Assembly (NCBI GenBank): GCA_037443365.1
Contig: JBBIOM010000013.1
Location: forward strand, 1-26,795
DNA length: 26,795 bases
Source of the DNA: Armatimonadota bacterium
Lineage (GTDB): Bacteria; Sysuimicrobiota; Sysuimicrobiia; Sysuimicrobiales; Humicultoraceae
Direction: 5' to 3'
Shown here: one piece after another, positions 16,209 to 23,187 of the stretch
Layout: each line of letters starts with the position of its first letter
Position numbering within the stretch: position 1 is the stretch's first letter
Program-made: the position numbers and the translations under genes
Notes under the pieces: generated by a model
What the model saw: only the letters and a program-made list of their open reading frames with translations
Database searches by the model: none
Told to the model about the DNA's origin: nothing

Positions 16209-17591
16209 TCAGAAGTGCGTGGGATCTCTCCGGACGAACTGACCGCGGCCGATGGTTCCCACGAAGACACCGTCCCGGACGGCGACCTGGCCCCGCACCG
16301 TCACCACACAGGGACGTCCCCGGATCGTCCAGCCCTCGAAGGCGTTGTAGTCTATGTTCATCTGATGGGTGGCCGCGGAGATCTTGCCCTCGTAGGCCGG
16401 ATCGTACACAACCAGGTCGGCGTCGCTGCCCGCGGCTATTGTGCCCTTGCGGGGAAGAAGCCCGAAGAGCCTGGCCGGCTGGGTGCTGGCTATGTCCACG
16501 AAGCGGTTCAGGTCCAGCCGCCCCTCCGTGACCCCGTGCGTGTAGAGGAGGTTGACCCGGTCCTCGAGCGCCGGGATGCCGTTTGGGATCTTGGTGAAGT
16601 CATCCCTGCCCATCTGCTTCTGAGTATGGAAGTCGAACGGCGCGTGATCGGTGGCCACCGTGTTGATCAGCCCGTCGCGCAGCGCCCGCCACAGCACGGG
16701 CTGGTTGCGCGCATCGCGCAGCGGCGGCGACATGACGTACTTGGCGCCCTCGAACCCCGGGCGCTCGGCGTAGGTCATGTCGAGTGTCAGGTACTGGATC
16801 AGCGTCTCCACCCAGGCCCGCACGCCCCGGCTCCTGGCCGCCAGCACCTCCCGGAGGGATTCCTCACAGCTCAGGTGCACGATGTACACGTGCGCGTCGT
16901 GCATCTCGGCGAAGGTCATCAGGTGGTGCGTGCCCAGGGCCTCTACCTGCGGCGGCCGGCTCCAGTAGTGCCACTGGGGTCCGGTCTTGCCCTCTGCGAG
17001 CAGCCGCTGCTGCAACAGGATGATCGCATCCGCGTTCTCGCAGTGGGCGCAGGTGAGCACGCCCAGTTCCTTGGCTAGGCGCAGCACCTGATACAGCTCG
17101 CTGTCATCTATGCCCAAGGCGCCCTTGTAGGCCAGGAAGATCTTAAACGATGGCACGCCCGCATCCACGATCTCCCGCAGTTGATGCTCCACCGCGGCGT
17201 CGAACCGCGCGACGCCCATGTGATAGGCGTAGTCGCAGGCCGACCGGCCCTCGGCCTGCGCCCGCCACGTCTCGAGGGCGGCCAATGGCTCCTCGGAGCG
17301 CGAAGGGCAGCACATTTCGATGAAGCACGTCGTGCCGCCGACCAGGGCGGCCCGGCTGGCCGTCTCGTATGTCTCCTTGGCGAACGTTCCCATGAAGGGC
17401 AGGTAGACGTGCACGTGGGGATCGATGAACCCGGGGAAGACGTACTTGCCCCGCGCGTCGATGACCGTGGTGTCGGGCGGCGCGTCCAGATCGCGCCCGA
17501 TGCGCGTGATCTGCTCGCCCTGGCAGTATATGTCGGCCACATAGCGGTCGGTGGCCGTGACGATCTCGCCGTTCTTCACGAGGAGACTCAT
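16209..17591 (-). CDS. hydA: Dihydropyrimidinase / D-hydantoinase
   Basis: 460 aa; PGFIDPHVH, GGTT, SFKIFLAY (carboxylated Lys site), AHCEN, IVHLS, YVMSPPLR, TDHAPF, IPNG, GSDADLVV. Confidence 0.95.
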   Translation of the reverse strand: MSLLVKNGEIVTATDRYVADIYCQGEQITRIGRDLDAPPDTTVIDARGKYVFPGFIDPHVHVYLPFMGTFAKETYETASRAALVGGTTCFIEMCCPSRSEEPLAALETWRAQAEGRSACDYAYHMGVARFDAAVEHQLREIVDAGVPSFKIFLAYKGALGIDDSELYQVLRLAKELGVLTCAHCENADAIILLQQRLLAEGKTGPQWHYWSRPPQVEALGTHHLMTFAEMHDAHVYIVHLSCEESLREVLAARSRGVRAWVETLIQYLTLDMTYAERPGFEGAKYVMSPPLRDARNQPVLWRALRDGLINTVATDHAPFDFHTQKQMGRDDFTKIPNGIPALEDRVNLLYTHGVTEGRLDLNRFVDIASTQPARLFGLLPRKGTIAAGSDADLVVYDPAYEGKISAATHQMNIDYNAFEGWTIRGRPCVVTVRGQVAVRDGVFVGTIGRGQFVRRDPTHF

Positions 17592-17597
17592 GGATTC

Positions 17598-18470
17598 TCA
17601 GGACGCCTCCGGGTCGGCGATATCGGCGTACATCTCGGGCCGGCGATCGCGGTAGAACTGCCAGGTGTTGCGCACCTCGCGGATCAGGTCGAGGTTCAGG
17701 TCGCAAACCAGCAGCTGCTCGCGCGTGTCGCTGGCCACAAGTTCGCCGGTCCGCGCGTCGGGCACGTACTGGCCGCGCGGATCGGCGAAGTACGACGAGC
17801 CGTAGTAGTCGTTCGAGCCCAGCTCGGGTTCCTTTCCCACGCGGTTGATGGTGCCCACGAACACGCCGTTGAAGATCGCGTGCGCCCGCTGCTCGATCTC
17901 CCAGAGGTGCGTGGAGAGCCCGCGCGACGTCGCGCTGGGGATGAAGATGATCTCCGCGCCGCGCAGTCCGAGCACGCGCGGCCCCTCGGGGAAGTGCCTG
18001 TCGTAGCATATGTAGACGCCCACCCTGCCGACGGCCGTGTCAAACACCGGGTAGCCCAGGTTGCCGGGCTTGAAGTAGAACTTCTCCCAGAAGCCCGGCA
18101 GGTGAGGGATGTGGGTCTTGCGGTACTTGCCCAGGTACGCGCCGTCGGCGTCGATCACCGCGGCGGTGTTGTAGTAAATGCCGGCGTGCTCGACCTCGTA
18201 GGTCGGAACGATCAGCACCATGCGGTGCTTGCGGGCCTGGTCTTGCATCAGGCGGGTCGTCGGGCCGTCGGGGATCGGCTCGGTGAGGTCGTAGTGCCTG
18301 GTGTCCTGCTCCTGACAGAAGTAGGGCCCGCTGAACAGCTCCTGGAAGCACATCACCTGCGCGCCGGCCCCTGCCGCCTCGGCGATGTAGGCCACGTGCT
18401 TCTCGATCATGGACTGCCGGTCGCCGGTCCAGGTGGCCTGCAGCAACGCGCCTCGTACCACTCGTCCCAT
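17598..18470 (-). CDS. Nitrilase-superfamily hydrolase, probable beta-ureidopropionase
   Basis: 290 aa; triad motifs FQELF, KYRKTHIP, ICYDRHFPE; FWEKFYF; 6 nt upstream of hydA; SD GGAGGGAG. Confidence 0.88.
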   Translation of the reverse strand: MGRVVRGALLQATWTGDRQSMIEKHVAYIAEAAGAGAQVMCFQELFSGPYFCQEQDTRHYDLTEPIPDGPTTRLMQDQARKHRMVLIVPTYEVEHAGIYYNTAAVIDADGAYLGKYRKTHIPHLPGFWEKFYFKPGNLGYPVFDTAVGRVGVYICYDRHFPEGPRVLGLRGAEIIFIPSATSRGLSTHLWEIEQRAHAIFNGVFVGTINRVGKEPELGSNDYYGSSYFADPRGQYVPDARTGELVASDTREQLLVCDLNLDLIREVRNTWQFYRDRRPEMYADIADPEAS

Positions 18471-18612
18471 ATCTCCCTCCCGTGGCCCGATAATGATTTC
18501 TTGTCCTGCCCCTGGCTCCCTGCTTCTCTAAATGCAGCACCATCTGGCCGTTCCCGTCAGGAATCAGGTATGCTCGCATTGGCGGCGGCGCGCCGCCAGG
18601 AGGCAGGAGGGA

Positions 18613-20757
18613 ATGACACAGGATCAGGTTCACAAGATCATCACCGAGGACCGCCCCGAGCGCCTGACCGACCCAGGCAAGCGTCCGATCCCCGAGGACC
18701 ACGCCGCCCACGTGGTCCAACTCGCCGGCTGGGGACACTGCGCCCTGGCGGCCGACCACCTACTGTTTCCCGAGATCACGGGAGCGCTCCCAGCGGTGGT
18801 CGCCGCGGTGATCCGGCGGCTCGGTTTCCTTCTGGCCGCGCAACGCTACGGCGAGGCCCAGGGCCCAGACGCCATCGAGGCGTACGTCCGGACGCGGCAG
18901 CGTGCCTACGAGACGCTGCTCGAGATCGCGCTCAACTTCACCGGCATGGAGAGCCGCTGGCTCGACGATGGCGAGAAGCGCGAAGCGCTCCGGTGCGTGC
19001 GCAGCGCCCTGGCGGAGTGGGAGGCGGAGGAGTGGGAGACCCAGGATGCCGCCGGGGCCCGCATCTCCGTGGCGGCCGAGGTGGTGCGCCACTTCCTCGG
19101 CCGGATGAAGCTGGTCCAGAAGGGGACCAGCATGGCTGCCAGGACCGCGGTCCGGATCGAGCAGGCCCTCGACTTTGGCCGTCCCGTGCTGCTTGCCTTC
19201 CTGGATCGGGCGCGCGACGAGATCGAGGGCAACGTCTATGCGCGCATGGTGCGAGCGGGCTACTGCCGGTTCGGGAACGACTACGCCCTGGGGCTGCGCT
19301 GGCTGCGCCACCTGGGGTTCGAGCAGGTGTCCACCAATCCGGTGCTGGCAGCCCTTGCCTATCAGGACGACCCCGGGCTTGGGCGGCTCTTCCAGGCCGA
19401 GGTCCGCGCGCACCGCAGGTTCAATGAATGGGCGAAGGCGCCCGAGAGTCTCGGCGACGAGATCGCTCTCTACGCCACGCTGCTGGCCCTGTGGGACAAC
19501 CTGCACGTCTTCCGTCCCATATTCTTCAACCTGGCCGCGGAGTCGGGCGGCGGCGTGGTCTCGTTCCAGCTGAACCCCAACATCGCGCACCTGGCGAAGG
19601 AGAGCGTTCGGGACGTGCTCGCGGCCGCGGGCGAGGCCGCGACCGATCTTGCGGTCTACGACGACTACCTGCTGGCAGGATACCCGGCCACCCGCGAACG
19701 GGCGCGGCCCAACATGGTCATCAAGGTGGCGGCCTCCTCGCCGGCGGCAAGGGAGATCGCCCGGACCATCAACGGGTTGGGCATCGGCTCCAACATCACG
19801 GTGAGCTTCACCGCGGCGCAGCAGGTCACGATGATCCTCGAAGAAATGGCCGGCATGGCCGCGGCGGTCAAGAAGGGGATCATACCCACCCAGCTCTACA
19901 TGACGAACATGGGCGGGCGGTTCGAGAGCCACCTGCGCGAGGTGAAGCTGGAGGAACTGTTCGGCCGGCTCAAGGCGAAGGTCGGCGAGGCCGCGGCGTT
20001 GGAGCGAGTGCGCCAGCTGGCCGCCGCGAACGGGACCAGCGGCCTAGTGGACCGAGCCCTGGGGTACGAGGCGAAGGTGATCGCGGCCACGCGCTACGCG
20101 GCGCAGCGGACGATCGACGCCAACGCCGCAACCGCGCTCGGCGAGGTGGCCTGTGAGGACGATCTCGCGGCATGGGAGGACGCAATCGGGAGGGCCGGCA
20201 CGCTGGTGGCCCGGCGGGTGTGGGGCATCTTCTTCTCCCCAGGGCACCGCGAGAAGTGGCTGGACTACCTCTGCCGGACGCACGCGATATCGCGCGAGCA
20301 GGCAGGGCTCATCCTCAGGCGGATCCACTACCTGCCGGCATCCAAGCGCAAGCCCGAGGATACCTACTGGACGCTCGCCGGCTCAAACCTGGTCCACACC
20401 GAGTTCCCCAACCACCAGGAGAACGTCCGCCGCGCGGCCGAGGCCGAGGGCTTCCGCCTGGAGGACCACCGCGAATCCATCGCCGGGGATCTCCCAGCGC
20501 ACGCGCTCGTCCGCCTCAACGAACTCCCGGACTTCCGTGCGGGCTACGAGCTCACCCCAGGGCTCAACGCCATCATTCTCCAGGCCGGCGTCGAGGGCGA
20601 CTTTGGGAACGGCGGCCACGAGCCCGAGCAGTGGCCGGAGTTCGGCTCGGTCCGCAAGACCCTAGCTGAGTTCAAGGGCGCCTACGACACCTTCAGGGGC
20701 GAGATGCTGAGACTGCTCAGGGAAGCGGTTCAGGGGAGCCCCTCGGTGGGGTCATGA
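18613..20757 (+). CDS. Large divergent transaldolase-family protein
   Basis: 714 aa from ATG 18613 (GGAGG upstream). Transaldolase barrel motifs in order: GND, STNP, VSFQLNP, PNMVIKV (Schiff-base Lys), NITVSF, MGGR, ASKR; about 215-aa N-terminal extension and helical insertions. Confidence 0.78.
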   Translation: MTQDQVHKIITEDRPERLTDPGKRPIPEDHAAHVVQLAGWGHCALAADHLLFPEITGALPAVVAAVIRRLGFLLAAQRYGEAQGPDAIEAYVRTRQRAYETLLEIALNFTGMESRWLDDGEKREALRCVRSALAEWEAEEWETQDAAGARISVAAEVVRHFLGRMKLVQKGTSMAARTAVRIEQALDFGRPVLLAFLDRARDEIEGNVYARMVRAGYCRFGNDYALGLRWLRHLGFEQVSTNPVLAALAYQDDPGLGRLFQAEVRAHRRFNEWAKAPESLGDEIALYATLLALWDNLHVFRPIFFNLAAESGGGVVSFQLNPNIAHLAKESVRDVLAAAGEAATDLAVYDDYLLAGYPATRERARPNMVIKVAASSPAAREIARTINGLGIGSNITVSFTAAQQVTMILEEMAGMAAAVKKGIIPTQLYMTNMGGRFESHLREVKLEELFGRLKAKVGEAAALERVRQLAAANGTSGLVDRALGYEAKVIAATRYAAQRTIDANAATALGEVACEDDLAAWEDAIGRAGTLVARRVWGIFFSPGHREKWLDYLCRTHAISREQAGLILRRIHYLPASKRKPEDTYWTLAGSNLVHTEFPNHQENVRRAAEAEGFRLEDHRESIAGDLPAHALVRLNELPDFRAGYELTPGLNAIILQAGVEGDFGNGGHEPEQWPEFGSVRKTLAEFKGAYDTFRGEMLRLLREAVQGSPSVGS

Positions 20758-22004
20758 TGATCCTTCCAAGGTACAGCATGGGTATCGGCGATCGGTTCGC
20801 CCGGCAGGGCCAGGCGCAACTGCGAGCGTTCGCGCAGGCCAGGGCGCTGGGCGTTGACATTACGCCGGTCTGGAACAAGTCCAACCGCGAGCACATGATC
20901 GTGGGAAGCGGCCCTGACGCCGTGCGCGCCGAGGCCGATGCCGCGGTCAGGGCGCTTCGCTGGACCGGTCCCTACTACGTGGACGCCGACCACATCACCC
21001 TACAGACCGTCGAGGCGTTCATCTGTGCCTGTGACTTCTTCACCATTGACGTGGCCGACTTCGTGGGCCGGCCGGCCCCCGACGAGGAGGTCTGGGATTT
21101 CGCAGACCGGCACCGGCGGGTCGCATCCCGAGGCATCCCTGGCACCGCACTCGCCGACCCCGTCTCCCCCGATGATGTCGCCCGGATAGGGCGGCAGTAC
21201 CTTCTGGCGGCCCGCGGGGCCGGGGCAATCTACCGCCGCATCGAGGCGGCGAAGGGGCACGGCCGGTTCATCACCGAGGTGTCGATCGACGAGACCGACT
21301 CGCCCCAGACGCCGGTGGACCTGTTGCTCATCCTGGCCGCGCTCGCCGACGAGAAGGTCCCGGTGCAGACCATCGCGCCCAAGTTCACCGGCCGATTCAA
21401 CAAGGGGACCGACTACGTCGGCGACGTGGCGCGGTTCGAGCAGGAGTTCAACGACGACCTGGCGGTCGTGGCGTTCGCGGTCCGGGAGTTTGGCCTTCCG
21501 CCGGATCTCAAGATCAGCATCCACTCGGGCAGCGACAAGTTCTCGATCTACGCGCCGATCGCCCGCGCGATCCAGAAGCACGACGCCGGCCTGCACCTCA
21601 AGACCGCTGGTACGACCTGGCTGGCCGAGGTGGAGGGGCTGGCGGCCTCAGGCGGCGAAGCGCTCGGGCTGGCGCAGGAGATCTACGCGCAGGCGTACGC
21701 GCGCACCGACGAACTCACCGCGCCGTACGCGGCCGTGATCGACATCGCCCGGGAGCGCCTGCCGGCGCCTGAGATCGTCCGGCGCTGGTCGAGCGCCCAG
21801 TTCGTGGCGGCCCTGCGCCACGACCCCACATGCCCGGCCTACAACCCGCACCTGCGGCAGTTGCTCCACGTGGCGTTCAAGGTGGCCGCGGGGATGGGGC
21901 CGGAGTACCTCGGGGCCCTGGACGATCACGCGGACGTGATCGGCCCGCTGGTGACCGAGAACCTGCTCGACCGGCACATCCGGCCGGTCTTCATCCCCGG
22001 ATAG
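20754..22004 (+). CDS. uxaE: Tagaturonate/fructuronate epimerase family protein
   Basis: 416 aa; GIGDRF, VDADH, EVSIDET, APKFTGRFNKGTDY, KISIHSGSDKF, HLKTAGTTWL, RQLLHVAFK; ATGA overlap with the upstream gene. Confidence 0.88.
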   Translation: MMILPRYSMGIGDRFARQGQAQLRAFAQARALGVDITPVWNKSNREHMIVGSGPDAVRAEADAAVRALRWTGPYYVDADHITLQTVEAFICACDFFTIDVADFVGRPAPDEEVWDFADRHRRVASRGIPGTALADPVSPDDVARIGRQYLLAARGAGAIYRRIEAAKGHGRFITEVSIDETDSPQTPVDLLLILAALADEKVPVQTIAPKFTGRFNKGTDYVGDVARFEQEFNDDLAVVAFAVREFGLPPDLKISIHSGSDKFSIYAPIARAIQKHDAGLHLKTAGTTWLAEVEGLAASGGEALGLAQEIYAQAYARTDELTAPYAAVIDIARERLPAPEIVRRWSSAQFVAALRHDPTCPAYNPHLRQLLHVAFKVAAGMGPEYLGALDDHADVIGPLVTENLLDRHIRPVFIPG

Positions 22005-23154
22005 CCCGCTCGATCCGGTCGAGGATCTCCTGGAGGATCGCCGGCGTCGTCGCGAAGTTGAGCCGGGCGCAGCAACTGTCCCCGCCGAAGTCGGCGCCGT
22101 CGTTGAGCGCCACGCCGGCCCGGTTGCGCAGGAACTCCGCGGCCGGGCGGTCGAGGCCCAGCGCGCCGAAGTCGAGCCACGCCAGGTACGTGCCCTCGGG
22201 CGTCCGGTGCCGCACGCCGGGAAGCCGGTCCCGCACGCGCGCGGCCACCGTGTCGCGGTTCGTGTGGAGTTGCCGCAGCACGGCGTCGAACCAGGGGCCG
22301 CCCGCGGCCCAGGCGGCGACCGATGCCCGCATCCCCAGCACGCTCACGGTGCCCCGCATGCGCGCCGGCAGCGCATCGAACCGCGCGCGCAGTTCTGGGC
22401 TGCCGAAGATCGCCAGGGCGCACCGCGTTCCTGCAATGTTGAACGACTTGCTCGCCGAGGTGAGCGTGATCGTCCGGCGCGCCACCTCATCGCCCAGCGT
22501 CATGAACGGGATGTGCCGCCCCCCTGGATAGATGATGTCCATCCAGATCTCGTCGGATATCACCACGAGATCGTGCTCGACGGCTATCCCGGCGATCGCA
22601 TCCAGCTCGTCGCGGCGCATCACGCGCCCCGAGGGGTTGTGCGGGTTGCACAGCAACATCAGTTGCGTATCGCGGTCGGCGGCCAGACGACGCAGGCCTT
22701 CCAGGTCGAACACGGCCTCGCCGCAGGGGTCGATCATCCGGTTGTCAACGACCCTGCGGCCAAGGGTCGTGATGCTGGTGAGAAACGGCGGGTAGATCGG
22801 GCCCTGGACGATGACCCCGCCGCCAGGAGCGCTGAAGGCGTGTATCGCCACCATGATCCCCGACACGAGGTCGGTCAGCGCCGCGAAGGCCCCGGGGTCG
22901 TTCTCCCAGCCGTGCCGGGCAGCCAGCCAGCCGGATGCCGCCTCGAATAGCGCCTGGGCGTCCTCTTCACCGCCGTACCCCAGGGCGGAGTTCGCCGCCG
23001 ACCAGGTCAGTACGTCGCGCACCGGCTCTGGCACGGCGAAGTCCATGTCGGCCACCCAGGCGCCGAGCACGCCGTCGCCGTACTTGCTCCACTTGGCTCC
23101 GCGCCGGGCGCGGACCGACGCTTCGGTGACGCCCGCGCAGGGATCGATGGTCAT
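21991..23154 (-). CDS. PatB/MalY family PLP-dependent C-S lyase/aminotransferase
   Basis: WVADMDF, LCNPHNPSGRV, ISDEI, SASKSFNIAG (PLP Lys), EGTYLAWLD, RLNFAT; ATG 23154 with SD GGAGGT. Confidence 0.92.
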   Translation of the reverse strand: MTIDPCAGVTEASVRARRGAKWSKYGDGVLGAWVADMDFAVPEPVRDVLTWSAANSALGYGGEEDAQALFEAASGWLAARHGWENDPGAFAALTDLVSGIMVAIHAFSAPGGGVIVQGPIYPPFLTSITTLGRRVVDNRMIDPCGEAVFDLEGLRRLAADRDTQLMLLCNPHNPSGRVMRRDELDAIAGIAVEHDLVVISDEIWMDIIYPGGRHIPFMTLGDEVARRTITLTSASKSFNIAGTRCALAIFGSPELRARFDALPARMRGTVSVLGMRASVAAWAAGGPWFDAVLRQLHTNRDTVAARVRDRLPGVRHRTPEGTYLAWLDFGALGLDRPAAEFLRNRAGVALNDGADFGGDSCCARLNFATTPAILQEILDRIERAIRG

Positions 23155-23187
23155 GATTACCTCCACTTGTCGGACTCTACCTGTGCA

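Follow-up and report, generated by a model that had tools for sequence, protein, structure and literature searches.

Enzymes of the transaldolase fold bind a 2-ketose at C2 through an active-site lysine and cut the C3-C4 bond of donors with the D-threo (fructo) configuration. In E. coli transaldolase (TalB) and fructose 6-phosphate aldolase (FSA) a distal Arg/Ser/Arg site holds the anion at the tail of the donor. The sulfofructose transaldolase BmSF-TAL (PDB 8bc3, 8bc4 and 8c4i) uses a donor whose C6 anion is not a phosphate, and 8bc3, a sulfofructose Schiff-base complex, shows a C6-anionic analogue of fructose as the donor of an enzyme of this fold. D-Fructuronate is fructose with a carboxylate at C6. 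This analysis concerns a two-gene unit in a 26,795-nucleotide stretch of DNA (the window) from an Armatimonadota bacterium (assembly GCA_037443365.1, contig JBBIOM010000013.1). The first gene (18613-20757, + strand) encodes a large transaldolase-fold protein, here named BIG, and the second (20754-22004, +) encodes a short member of the UxaE family. The evidence leaves about an even chance that the pair works as one functional unit in degrading myo-inositol, hexuronates or both, in which BIG cleaves fructuronate-type keto-uronates at C3-C4, a reaction that would be the carboxylate analogue of sulfofructose cleavage. The observations that carry this reading are the fold, an invariant lysine with invariant anion-site residues, genetic linkage and pathway-gene content; what BIG acts on, which bond it cuts and what it yields are inferred from them.

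The long transaldolases (E. coli TalB and the enzymes of Neisseria gonorrhoeae and Corynebacterium glutamicum; PF00923) share with BIG the barrel and the C-terminal helices, and putative counterparts of their Schiff-base lysine, of Asn35, Asn154 and Thr156 and of the distal Arg/Ser/Arg site can be named in it. BIG is about twice as large, with some 200 additional residues at the N-terminus and an insertion of about 135, and it is a patchy, accessory protein found in an inositol/uronate context and not in the pentose-phosphate pathway. FSA (E. coli fsaA) has the same superfamily fold and, presumably, shares with BIG a Gln at the position of TalB Glu96. It is a protein of 220 residues that forms decamers and uses as acid-base residue a tyrosine, which we take to be Tyr131, where BIG has Met433. 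BmSF-TAL is short and decameric, a canonical TAL_FSA protein linked to sulfoquinovose, whereas BIG is linked to UxaE and inositol genes. IolJ cuts a C6 acid of the keto-uronate type between C3 and C4 (ketose numbering) into a dihydroxyacetone unit and a C3 aldehyde-acid, the same cut as that proposed for BIG. However, IolJ has a fold unrelated to that of BIG and is a class II metal-dependent aldolase, which needs phosphorylation by IolC and yields dihydroxyacetone phosphate and malonate semialdehyde.

In Thermotoga maritima myo-inositol is degraded through IolG, IolM, IolN and IolO, followed by UxaE, UxuB, UxuA, KdgK and KdgA. The original paper on this route is reportedly that of Rodionova et al. 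from 2013. According to PMC5931981, the route runs via 5-keto-L-gluconate to D-tagaturonate. The genome of the window shares IolM, IolN and IolO with it, all above the NCBIfam cut-offs, and the same genes flank BIG in a distant clade; the downstream UxuB, UxuA and Eda-type aldolase are unmatched in the genome, and BIG is proposed in their place. Canonical UxaE enzymes (Cohnella laeviribosi, PDB 6IL9 and 6ILA; Thermotoga) have in common with the short UxaE the counterparts of catalytic Glu126 and Asp159. In PMC11194214, UxaE is said to act by a metal-assisted retro-aldol/aldol reaction in which Asp159 and Glu126 are the acid-base residues, and the transient retro-aldol step that this paper sets out takes place at the same bond as the cleavage proposed for BIG. 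PMC11907403 reports that UxaE enzymes accept fructose and tagatose as well. Full-text literature, with subscription journals mostly outside the search, yielded no report linking a transaldolase or aldolase to the cleavage of fructuronate or tagaturonate.

Fold and active site of BIG

The AlphaFold2 model of BIG, built from an alignment of 32 relatives, has a predicted local distance difference test score of 92.8 and a predicted template modelling score of 0.91. In this model an N-terminal helical domain (residues 1 to about 204) precedes a complete long-type transaldolase barrel (205-700), and a helical insertion of about 135 residues (434-570) separates barrel strands 6 and 7. When the model is used as a Foldseek query, transaldolases rank first (E 7.7e-8, TM(target) 0.70, probability 1.00). 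Comparison with VIA aligns model range 205-699 with the Neisseria gonorrhoeae transaldolase 7bbx at Z 34.4 and a root-mean-square deviation of 2.6 Å over 333 of 352 residues. The scores are Z 29-30 for TalB, 17.8-18.0 for the sulfofructose transaldolase and 17.0 for FSA, and sequence identity to the solved transaldolases is only 14-17%.

The similarity is far fainter at the level of sequence. The NCBIfam transaldolase model is marginal (E 0.0044, 16.1 bits, cut-off 367), a Pfam scan of BIG returns no match, and PF00923 is matched by 21 of the 32 aligned relatives (best E 3.3e-14). In hhalign the BIG family profile aligns the expected motifs with single TalB and FSA sequences at probabilities of 3.7% and 4.7% (E 0.011 and 0.0086), and because these probabilities are low, the fold comparison is required to settle the homology. 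In the ESM Atlas BIG sits beside clusters named TAL/FSA-domain proteins. BIG is a transaldolase-fold protein by structure and a marginal one by sequence, and the label 'transaldolase-like', given when the window was read from its letters, holds for the first and only marginally for the second. A phmmer search of BIG against PDB sequences gave a pectate lyase as its sole match (E 0.062), which was taken as chance.

Conservation was measured in 148 full-length relatives, bacterial and archaeal, of at least 640 residues; shorter members, P0153 among them, were left out. Invariant in all 148 are D223, N242, Q319, K371, T396, Y429, R436, K578, R579 and E597. Lys371 (codon 19723-19725, +) lies in the motif VIKVAAS on strand 4 (residues 368-372) and is aligned by hhalign with TalB Lys132, so that its predicted role as the Schiff-base lysine, part of the sequence-only reading, is borne out. 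Gln319 (19567-19569, +; motif VVSFQLNP) is aligned by hhalign with TalB Glu96 and presumably also matches the position of FSA Gln59; the PDB titles 'FSA Q59E' and 'TalB E96Q' agree with FSA having Gln at the Glu96 position. Asp223 (19279-19281, +), in the motif FGND, is the last residue of strand 1 (219-223) and the proposed counterpart of TalB Asp17, by position only, since it falls outside the hhalign coverage and MAFFT aligned it to TalB Asp20. The hhalign alignment with TalB also pairs Asn242 with Asn35, Asn394 with Asn154 and Thr396 with Thr156, and Thr431 would correspond to TalB Ser176 by motif and strand position.

The putative distal anion site consists of Arg436 (19918-19920, +; motif TNMGGR), proposed as the counterpart of TalB Arg181, and of Ser577, Lys578 and Arg579 (20341-20349, +; motif LPASKR, strand 7 at 571-576), proposed as counterparts of TalB Ser226 and Arg228 in the motif ASFR. 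The equivalence of TNMGGR with TalB SPFVGR is drawn from motif and family alignment, not from a residue-level structural alignment. Ser577 is kept in 147 of the relatives, and a related extended family has ASLR aligned with the ASFR of TalB. Met433 (M in 147 of 148) stands by motif at the position of Phe178 in transaldolase and Tyr131 in FSA, four residues after the invariant Tyr429. Both Glu96 and Phe178 of the transaldolases are therefore replaced, and the FSA signature is half present, with the Gln and without the catalytic Tyr. With Gln in place of Glu96 and Met in place of Phe178, BIG departs from both the typical transaldolase and the typical FSA. By its conserved residues the active site appears functional but unlike that of known enzymes.

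The loss of the known acid-base residues would suit a protein that keeps the fold and the lysine for other Schiff-base chemistry, such as isomerisation, epimerisation or decarboxylation, or one that is a non-catalytic partner or scaffold of UxaE. About 350 extra residues in the N-terminal domain and the 434-570 insertion, and the co-translation suggested by the ATGA overlap of the two genes, point the same way. Such a role is nevertheless very unlikely. Lys371, Asp223, Asn242, Thr396 and the anion site are invariant in 148 or 147 of the 148 relatives, which argues for a working transaldolase-type site; moreover, loci of the Thermodesulfobacteriota type have the opposite gene order and no overlap, and in some genomes a long distance separates the two.

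A second extended transaldolase-like family of 324-590 residues (P0214, P0221, P0223, P0226, P0228, P0249, P0254, P0255 and P0257) has motifs as in BIG, namely GNDYA, VSLQVNPK (with the Gln), MNGR (with the Met), ASLR and TVFPN, and differs in its N-terminal region. Since the same unusual motifs recur there, the Gln/Met type is a broader branch of the transaldolase superfamily. BIG itself has many relatives: 988 BIG-like proteins have E of 0.001 or lower among 8000 candidates scored, and the best 120 are 703-785 residues long and labelled only 'hypothetical protein' in their sources. An exhaustive search of 50%-identity cluster representatives gave 137 matches, about 16 of them full length.

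The short UxaE and its linkage to BIG

The product of the second gene, 416 residues long, matches PF16257 (UxaE) with 151.7 bits against a cut-off of 27.1, over profile positions 80-431 of 475, which bears out the family first assigned to it. Against the Cohnella laeviribosi UxaE (PDB 6il9) the match has E 1.3e-24 and is aligned from chain residue 94. Because the two matches begin at profile position 80 and chain residue 94, the protein is without about 80-90 N-terminal residues of the canonical enzyme. It keeps the Glu of SNRE and the Asp of DADH, which the alignment pairs as SNRE with SIRE and VDADH with GADGDH of the PDB enzyme (residue numbers hand-counted), and its SIHSGSDKFS motif is identical to that of the PDB enzyme.

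Linkage was followed in a bacterial set of 60 loci from species-representative genomes of Armatimonadota, Methylomirabilota/NC10, Chloroflexota and Thermodesulfobacteriota/Syntrophaceae. At 36 of them tblastn places a UxaE homologue within the flanking sequence retrieved around BIG. In 13 it lies downstream and is 65-73% identical to the window UxaE; in the other 23 it lies immediately upstream and is 28-43% identical, the annotated upstream representative being a full-length UxaE of 502 residues (Pfam E 2e-160). Loci of the Thermodesulfobacteriota type have this reversed order, UxaE then BIG, with no overlap. Of the 24 loci without a flanking UxaE, three sit on contigs about 2 kb long and did not enter the whole-genome search. 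In 19 of the remaining 21 genomes UxaE is encoded elsewhere, above the cut-off and in some cases on the contig that holds BIG, at a distance of 10-46 kb, compared with one positive genome among 14 in the control. These counts carry no P value, related genomes being non-independent. The sequence-only reading was to stand or fall with the linkage of homologues to uxaE; this linkage recurs across phyla, in two gene orders in the bacterial set and at 14 of 80 loci of a distant clade, and unlinked loci mostly belong to genomes that encode UxaE elsewhere.

Within the phylum of the window UxaE occurs in 18 of 94 genomes. The short type is present in nine, and in all nine it follows BIG directly and in the same orientation, so that its occurrence in the phylum is only beside BIG; another genome carries BIG and a canonical UxaE, each on its own contig, and eight have a canonical UxaE and no BIG. 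BIG occurs in 11 of the 94 genomes, one match being a 136-residue fragment and two being split or interrupted. In one of the latter the gene lies in two frames (G033:C16:12929-15041), and in the other it is read through one TGA and one TAG (G052:C54:2-1624); both may be pseudogenes or assembly errors.

The transaldolase fold could also mean that BIG is simply the pentose-phosphate transaldolase of the organism in a long form, with UxaE as a neighbour by chance. This is hardly credible, since the linkage is seen in several phyla and with either gene first, and it was rejected: the genome of the window has a separate canonical short transaldolase (208.6 bits on PF00923), and within the phylum BIG is limited to the 11 genomes mentioned.

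The reading frame of BIG extends over 18532-20757 (+) and holds an ATG at 18613, from which the protein has 714 residues. Position 18613 is the likely start because a Shine-Dalgarno-like GGAGG/AGGAGGG directly precedes this ATG, in the divergent intergenic region 18471-18612 (+), and because its homologues, too, start with MTQ(D/E)Q. The TGA at 20755-20757 ends the BIG frame and the ATG at 20754 starts that of UxaE, so that both frames confirm the ATGA overlap at 20754-20757 (+) noticed when the window was first read.

Upstream of BIG, on the minus strand, lie a CN-hydrolase gene (17598-18470, open reading frame starting at 18470) and a dihydropyrimidinase gene (16209-17591; TIGR02033, 540.9 bits). 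Downstream and convergent with UxaE is a PatB-like C-S lyase gene (21991-23166; TIGR04350, 335.7 bits against a cut-off of 340), which shares 14 bases with the UxaE frame at their 3' ends (21991-22004). The other open reading frames scanned in the window, in a survey that left some small ones out, are ilvD, ilvC, an ilvB-like thiamine diphosphate enzyme, DUF1028, an RND efflux pair, a PMT_2 glycosyltransferase, UDG, an M29 peptidase and an FtsX-type permease. As these are unrelated to sugar acids, the pair is a self-contained unit, and the ORF map and family matches agree with its earlier description as two genes divergent from pyrimidine genes and convergent with patB. In one relative (L001) the dihydropyrimidinase and CN-hydrolase pair lies downstream of BIG and UxaE, compared with upstream in the window.

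Pathway genes in the genome and around BIG

The genome of the window (G000) has 2.22 Mb and is 97.7% complete. Homologue searches of the whole genome gave no match to UxaC, UxuA, Mannitol_dh (UxuB/UxaB) or an Eda-type aldolase. The lack of uxaC, uxuA, uxuB and kdgA first noticed in the window thus extends to the genome, including the uxuA and uxuB for which such a check had been suggested; for kdgK, named with them, no family search was made. The classical route from tagaturonate and fructuronate to 2-keto-3-deoxygluconate and pyruvate is accordingly incomplete in this genome. Contig C3 encodes IolM (552.6 bits, cut-off 450), IolN (530.2, cut-off 245) and IolO (313.4, cut-off 300); a GFO-family gene there fails the IolG equivalog test (154.2 bits against a cut-off of 355). 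This Thermotoga-type inositol cluster (C3:69500-79300; loci L157 and L164 cover it and the second IolN region) also holds a TIM barrel, a HAD phosphatase and ABC transporters. The second IolN (532.2 bits; C6:74000-79300) has as neighbours two Zn-dehydrogenases, a 2-hydroxyacid dehydrogenase, a TAXI-TRAP transporter and a GntR regulator.

Genes for the use of the proposed products are present as well. A tartronate-semialdehyde reductase (369.4 bits, cut-off 340.75) lies beside a Hyi-like barrel (342.9 bits, cut-off 353.45), the pair being about 13 kb from the C3 inositol cluster, and the genome has a Dak1 gene (404.5 bits) and a glycerate-kinase homologue (45% identity by tblastn). The tartronate-semialdehyde reductase and glycerate kinase looked for in the sequence-only reading are thus encoded, the reductase above its cut-off, along with a Hyi-like isomerase and Dak1. 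On paper, tagaturonate can be made and the genes for using dihydroxyacetone and tartronate semialdehyde are present. A search of the genome for glyoxylate carboligase, which would be another source of tartronate semialdehyde, found only thiamine diphosphate enzymes below the cut-off, the better of which is the ilvB-like gene of the window (334.2 bits, cut-off 711.2). An IolB-like gene (169.5 bits, below the cut-off of 205) lies on a different contig from BIG, and the regions around it and around the Hyi/reductase pair contain no further aldolase candidate. There are also 13 xylose-isomerase-like TIM-barrel genes in the genome, a high number, which fits a lifestyle on rare sugars and inositols.

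The usual order at loci of the Thermodesulfobacteriota type is a KduI/IolB-like gene, UxaE, BIG, a xylose-isomerase-like TIM barrel and sometimes a GFO/IDH/MocA oxidoreductase. In the bacterial set the KduI/IolB-like gene is found at 9 of 61 loci, the TIM barrel, whose top NCBIfam match is IolO at 104.5 bits (below the cut-off of 300), at 16 of 61, and the oxidoreductase at 5 of 61. Divergent from BIG at some NC10 loci are genes for a DctP solute-binding protein of the TRAP type (5 loci; DctM in L020) and a GntR-FCD regulator (3 loci).

A distant clade was surveyed by scanning metagenome contigs with members 30-47% identical to the window BIG, which gave 80 loci. The clade is of archaeal type, with TBP and a eukaryotic-type topoisomerase I among the neighbours. 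Annotated representatives identify an IolO-like TIM barrel at 30 of the 80 loci (weak, 37.8 bits), a glyoxylate/hydroxypyruvate reductase equivalog at 17 (593.6 bits, cut-off 455), UxaE at 14 (Pfam E 1.6e-29), IolG at 14 (472.4 bits, cut-off 355), a distant UxaC-like protein at 10 (Pfam E 2e-7), IolM at 7 (567.9 bits, cut-off 450), IolB at 5 (219.9 bits, cut-off 205), a glycerate 2-kinase family member at 5 (303.3 bits, below cut-off) and an IolN-like protein at 4 (231 bits, cut-off 245). At least one of these pathway neighbours is present at 49 of the 80 loci, at least two at 34, and one at 36 of the 47 loci of 8 kb or longer. Of the genes that the sequence-only reading had wanted looked for beside homologues of BIG, this distant clade offers a reductase, as the glyoxylate/hydroxypyruvate reductase equivalog, a glycerate kinase, at family level, and a distant UxaC-like protein.

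Several neighbours are recorded as observations in their own right. The UxaC-like protein of 427 residues (NCBIfam 37.5 bits, cut-off 387), whose gene adjoins BIG in L091, L092, L093, L096, L101, L107, L125, L126, L128 and L144, could represent a divergent form of uronate isomerase. In L078, L080, L081 and L123 the genes for a GDPD-family phosphodiesterase and a PfkB kinase are upstream of BIG and divergent from it, an arrangement that would suit a pathway in which inositol is freed from glycerophosphoinositol, or one with an intermediate that is phosphorylated. AmmeMemoRadiSam genes occur near BIG in two very distant clades (L024-L051; L091, L107, L128, L144 and others), with a Memo-like protein B on the opposite strand at 12 of 61 bacterial loci and a radical-SAM protein at 12 of 80 and AMMECR1 at 4 of 80 loci of the distant clade; their recurrence could be due to chance synteny or to a genuine connection. 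Further neighbours in the distant clade are a sugar ABC ATPase (10 loci) and GH20 and GH42 glycosidases (5 each).

The IolB genes among these neighbours bear on the substrate. If the main substrate were 5-dehydro-2-deoxy-D-gluconate, the product of IolB, BIG would yield dihydroxyacetone and malonate semialdehyde and act as a kinase-free substitute for IolC and IolJ. This compound is the 5-deoxy analogue of fructuronate, with the same D-threo configuration at C3/C4. A KduI/IolB-family gene adjoins BIG at 9 loci of the bacterial set and at the 5 of the distant clade; in L130, L131, L132 and L135 IolB is directly downstream and in L140 upstream, with no UxaE in view, and the genome of the window has its one IolB-like gene. 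As the main activity this is distinctly unlikely, because UxaE and not IolB is the invariable partner in the window and its phylum, and the IolB-like gene of the genome lies apart from BIG with no IolD or IolE identified beside it. It is a variant of the fructuronate proposal rather than its opposite, and BIG could take both substrates.

Across the phylum IolN is present in 68 of 94 genomes and the reductase in 80 at E 1e-90 or better (62 above the cut-off); without G038 and G046, which are flagged as unpublished and both of which lack BIG and UxaE and have IolN and the reductase, the counts are 66 and 78 of 92. UxuA is found in 3 of the 94 genomes, so that a replacement of UxuA by BIG cannot be demonstrated by complementary distribution. 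Set against those for UxaE (18) and UxuA, the numbers for IolN imply some other disposal of 5-keto-L-gluconate or tagaturonate in most of these genomes. In many of the phylum's genomes, including some without BIG, IolN and the reductase gene share a contig at a distance of 7-15 kb (G000 C3, with IolN at 77466-78386 and the reductase at 92155-93021; G113:C23, G035:C1, G031:C3, G033:C6, G029:C43, G037:C6 and G051:C33), which may reflect inherited synteny or a functional link between inositol and tartronate semialdehyde. Among genomes with BIG outside the phylum IolN is above the cut-off in 19 of 31, compared with 1 of 14 controls.

Proposed reaction and its meaning

In the proposed scheme the short UxaE would interconvert D-tagaturonate and D-fructuronate, the tagaturonate probably being made here by IolM, IolN and IolO; the feed is likely to be this Thermotoga-type myo-inositol route rather than uxaC. 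BIG would be a class I (lysine Schiff-base) aldolase or transaldolase in which Lys371 binds C2 of a keto-uronate of fructo configuration. Tagaturonate has the wrong configuration at C4 and is converted by UxaE to fructuronate, which on this proposal is why UxaE is the constant partner of BIG. With the C6 carboxylate held by Arg436, Ser577, Lys578 and Arg579, the C3-C4 bond would be broken and the C4-C6 part released as tartronate semialdehyde. This could be converted to glycerate by tartronate-semialdehyde reductase, or by a Hyi-like isomerase and hydroxypyruvate reductase, and glycerate to phosphoglycerate by glycerate kinase. The dihydroxyacetone unit bound to the lysine could be released and phosphorylated by dihydroxyacetone kinase (aldolase mode) or, equally possibly, transferred to an acceptor aldehyde, for instance glyceraldehyde 3-phosphate (transaldolase mode). 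The FSA-like Gln319 suggests release of free dihydroxyacetone over obligatory transfer, and together with the Dak1 gene it is the reason for leaning towards the aldolase mode. The UxuB/UxuA/KdgK/Eda steps would thereby be replaced. Where the neighbour is IolB and not UxaE, 5-dehydro-2-deoxy-D-gluconate may be the substrate.

A number of points weigh against this scheme. PF00923 is absent from BIG even at E up to 1, and the acid-base machineries of transaldolase and of FSA are both incomplete in it, going by the predicted Gln for Glu96 and Met for Phe178/Tyr131. The one UxaA/GarD-family dehydratase in the genome may belong to another route or provide a different source of tartronate semialdehyde. 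IolN and the reductase occur in all 11 BIG genomes of the phylum but also in most of those without BIG, so that these profiles, being near-universal in the phylum, do not discriminate; and most IolN-positive genomes there are without BIG or UxaE and must dispose of the product otherwise. IolN was not found in 12 of the 31 BIG genomes outside the phylum, genomes whose completeness is not known. In the distant clade 31 of the 80 loci have none of the pathway neighbours; this set of neighbours was picked after the annotations had been seen, with no matched background, and the neighbour ORFs were clustered with one representative annotated per cluster, so that clusters may be heterogeneous. DeoC-type aldolase (6 loci), class II fructose-bisphosphate aldolase (5) and PfkB kinase (4 of 80) also occur among the neighbours, and an FGGY kinase occurs at 2 loci of the bacterial set.

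The last of these findings, together with the anion site, raise the prospect of a phosphorylated ketose as substrate. The counterparts of R436, S577 and R579 bind phosphate in TalB, so that their retention, plus Lys578, would be compatible with fructose 6-phosphate, tagatose 6-phosphate, sedoheptulose 7-phosphate or a phosphorylated keto-uronate, and UxaE, given the acceptance of fructose and tagatose reported in PMC11907403, might serve as a 4-epimerase for sugar phosphates or neutral ketoses and not for uronates. That BIG acts in this way is unlikely. A conserved kinase partner is lacking, and the recurrent partners (UxaE, IolO-like, IolB/KduI, IolG, IolM, IolN and UxaC-like) use unphosphorylated inositol and uronate intermediates. 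The TRAP (DctP/DctM) genes that flank BIG with a GntR-FCD regulator at some NC10 loci are those of a carboxylate transporter, and a canonical transaldolase is already present in the genome of the window.

Returning to the cleavage of keto-uronates, its wider form, held with slightly less than even confidence, is an 'aldolytic' branch, so far undescribed and free of kinases, through which inositol and hexuronates would be broken down with BIG and UxaE at its core. In it a BIG protein specific for the C6 carboxylate would split fructuronate, and perhaps its 5-deoxy analogue, to give dihydroxyacetone together with the semialdehyde of tartronate (or malonate). Such a branch would extend over several bacterial phyla and the archaeal-type clade and bypass mannonate, 2-keto-3-deoxygluconate and the Entner-Doudoroff-type aldolase, and BIG would define a new branch of the transaldolase superfamily, of double size and of the Gln/Met type. 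Already known are the fold and the Schiff-base chemistry, whereas novelty lies in the size of BIG, its Gln/Met active site, its partner and its probable substrate.

If the proposal is true, the C3-C4 cleavage of a keto-uronate by a class I aldolase would be a new reaction, and it would give the Thermotoga-type inositol pathway and hexuronate catabolism a new end. A function would be assigned to a widespread family of 'hypothetical proteins', and the existence of a divergent, N-terminally shortened UxaE would be explained. The transaldolase scaffold would prove retunable for a carboxylate tail, as it is for a sulfonate in sulfofructose transaldolase, and BIG could find use as a biocatalyst that joins dihydroxyacetone to acidic aldehydes through a new C-C bond.

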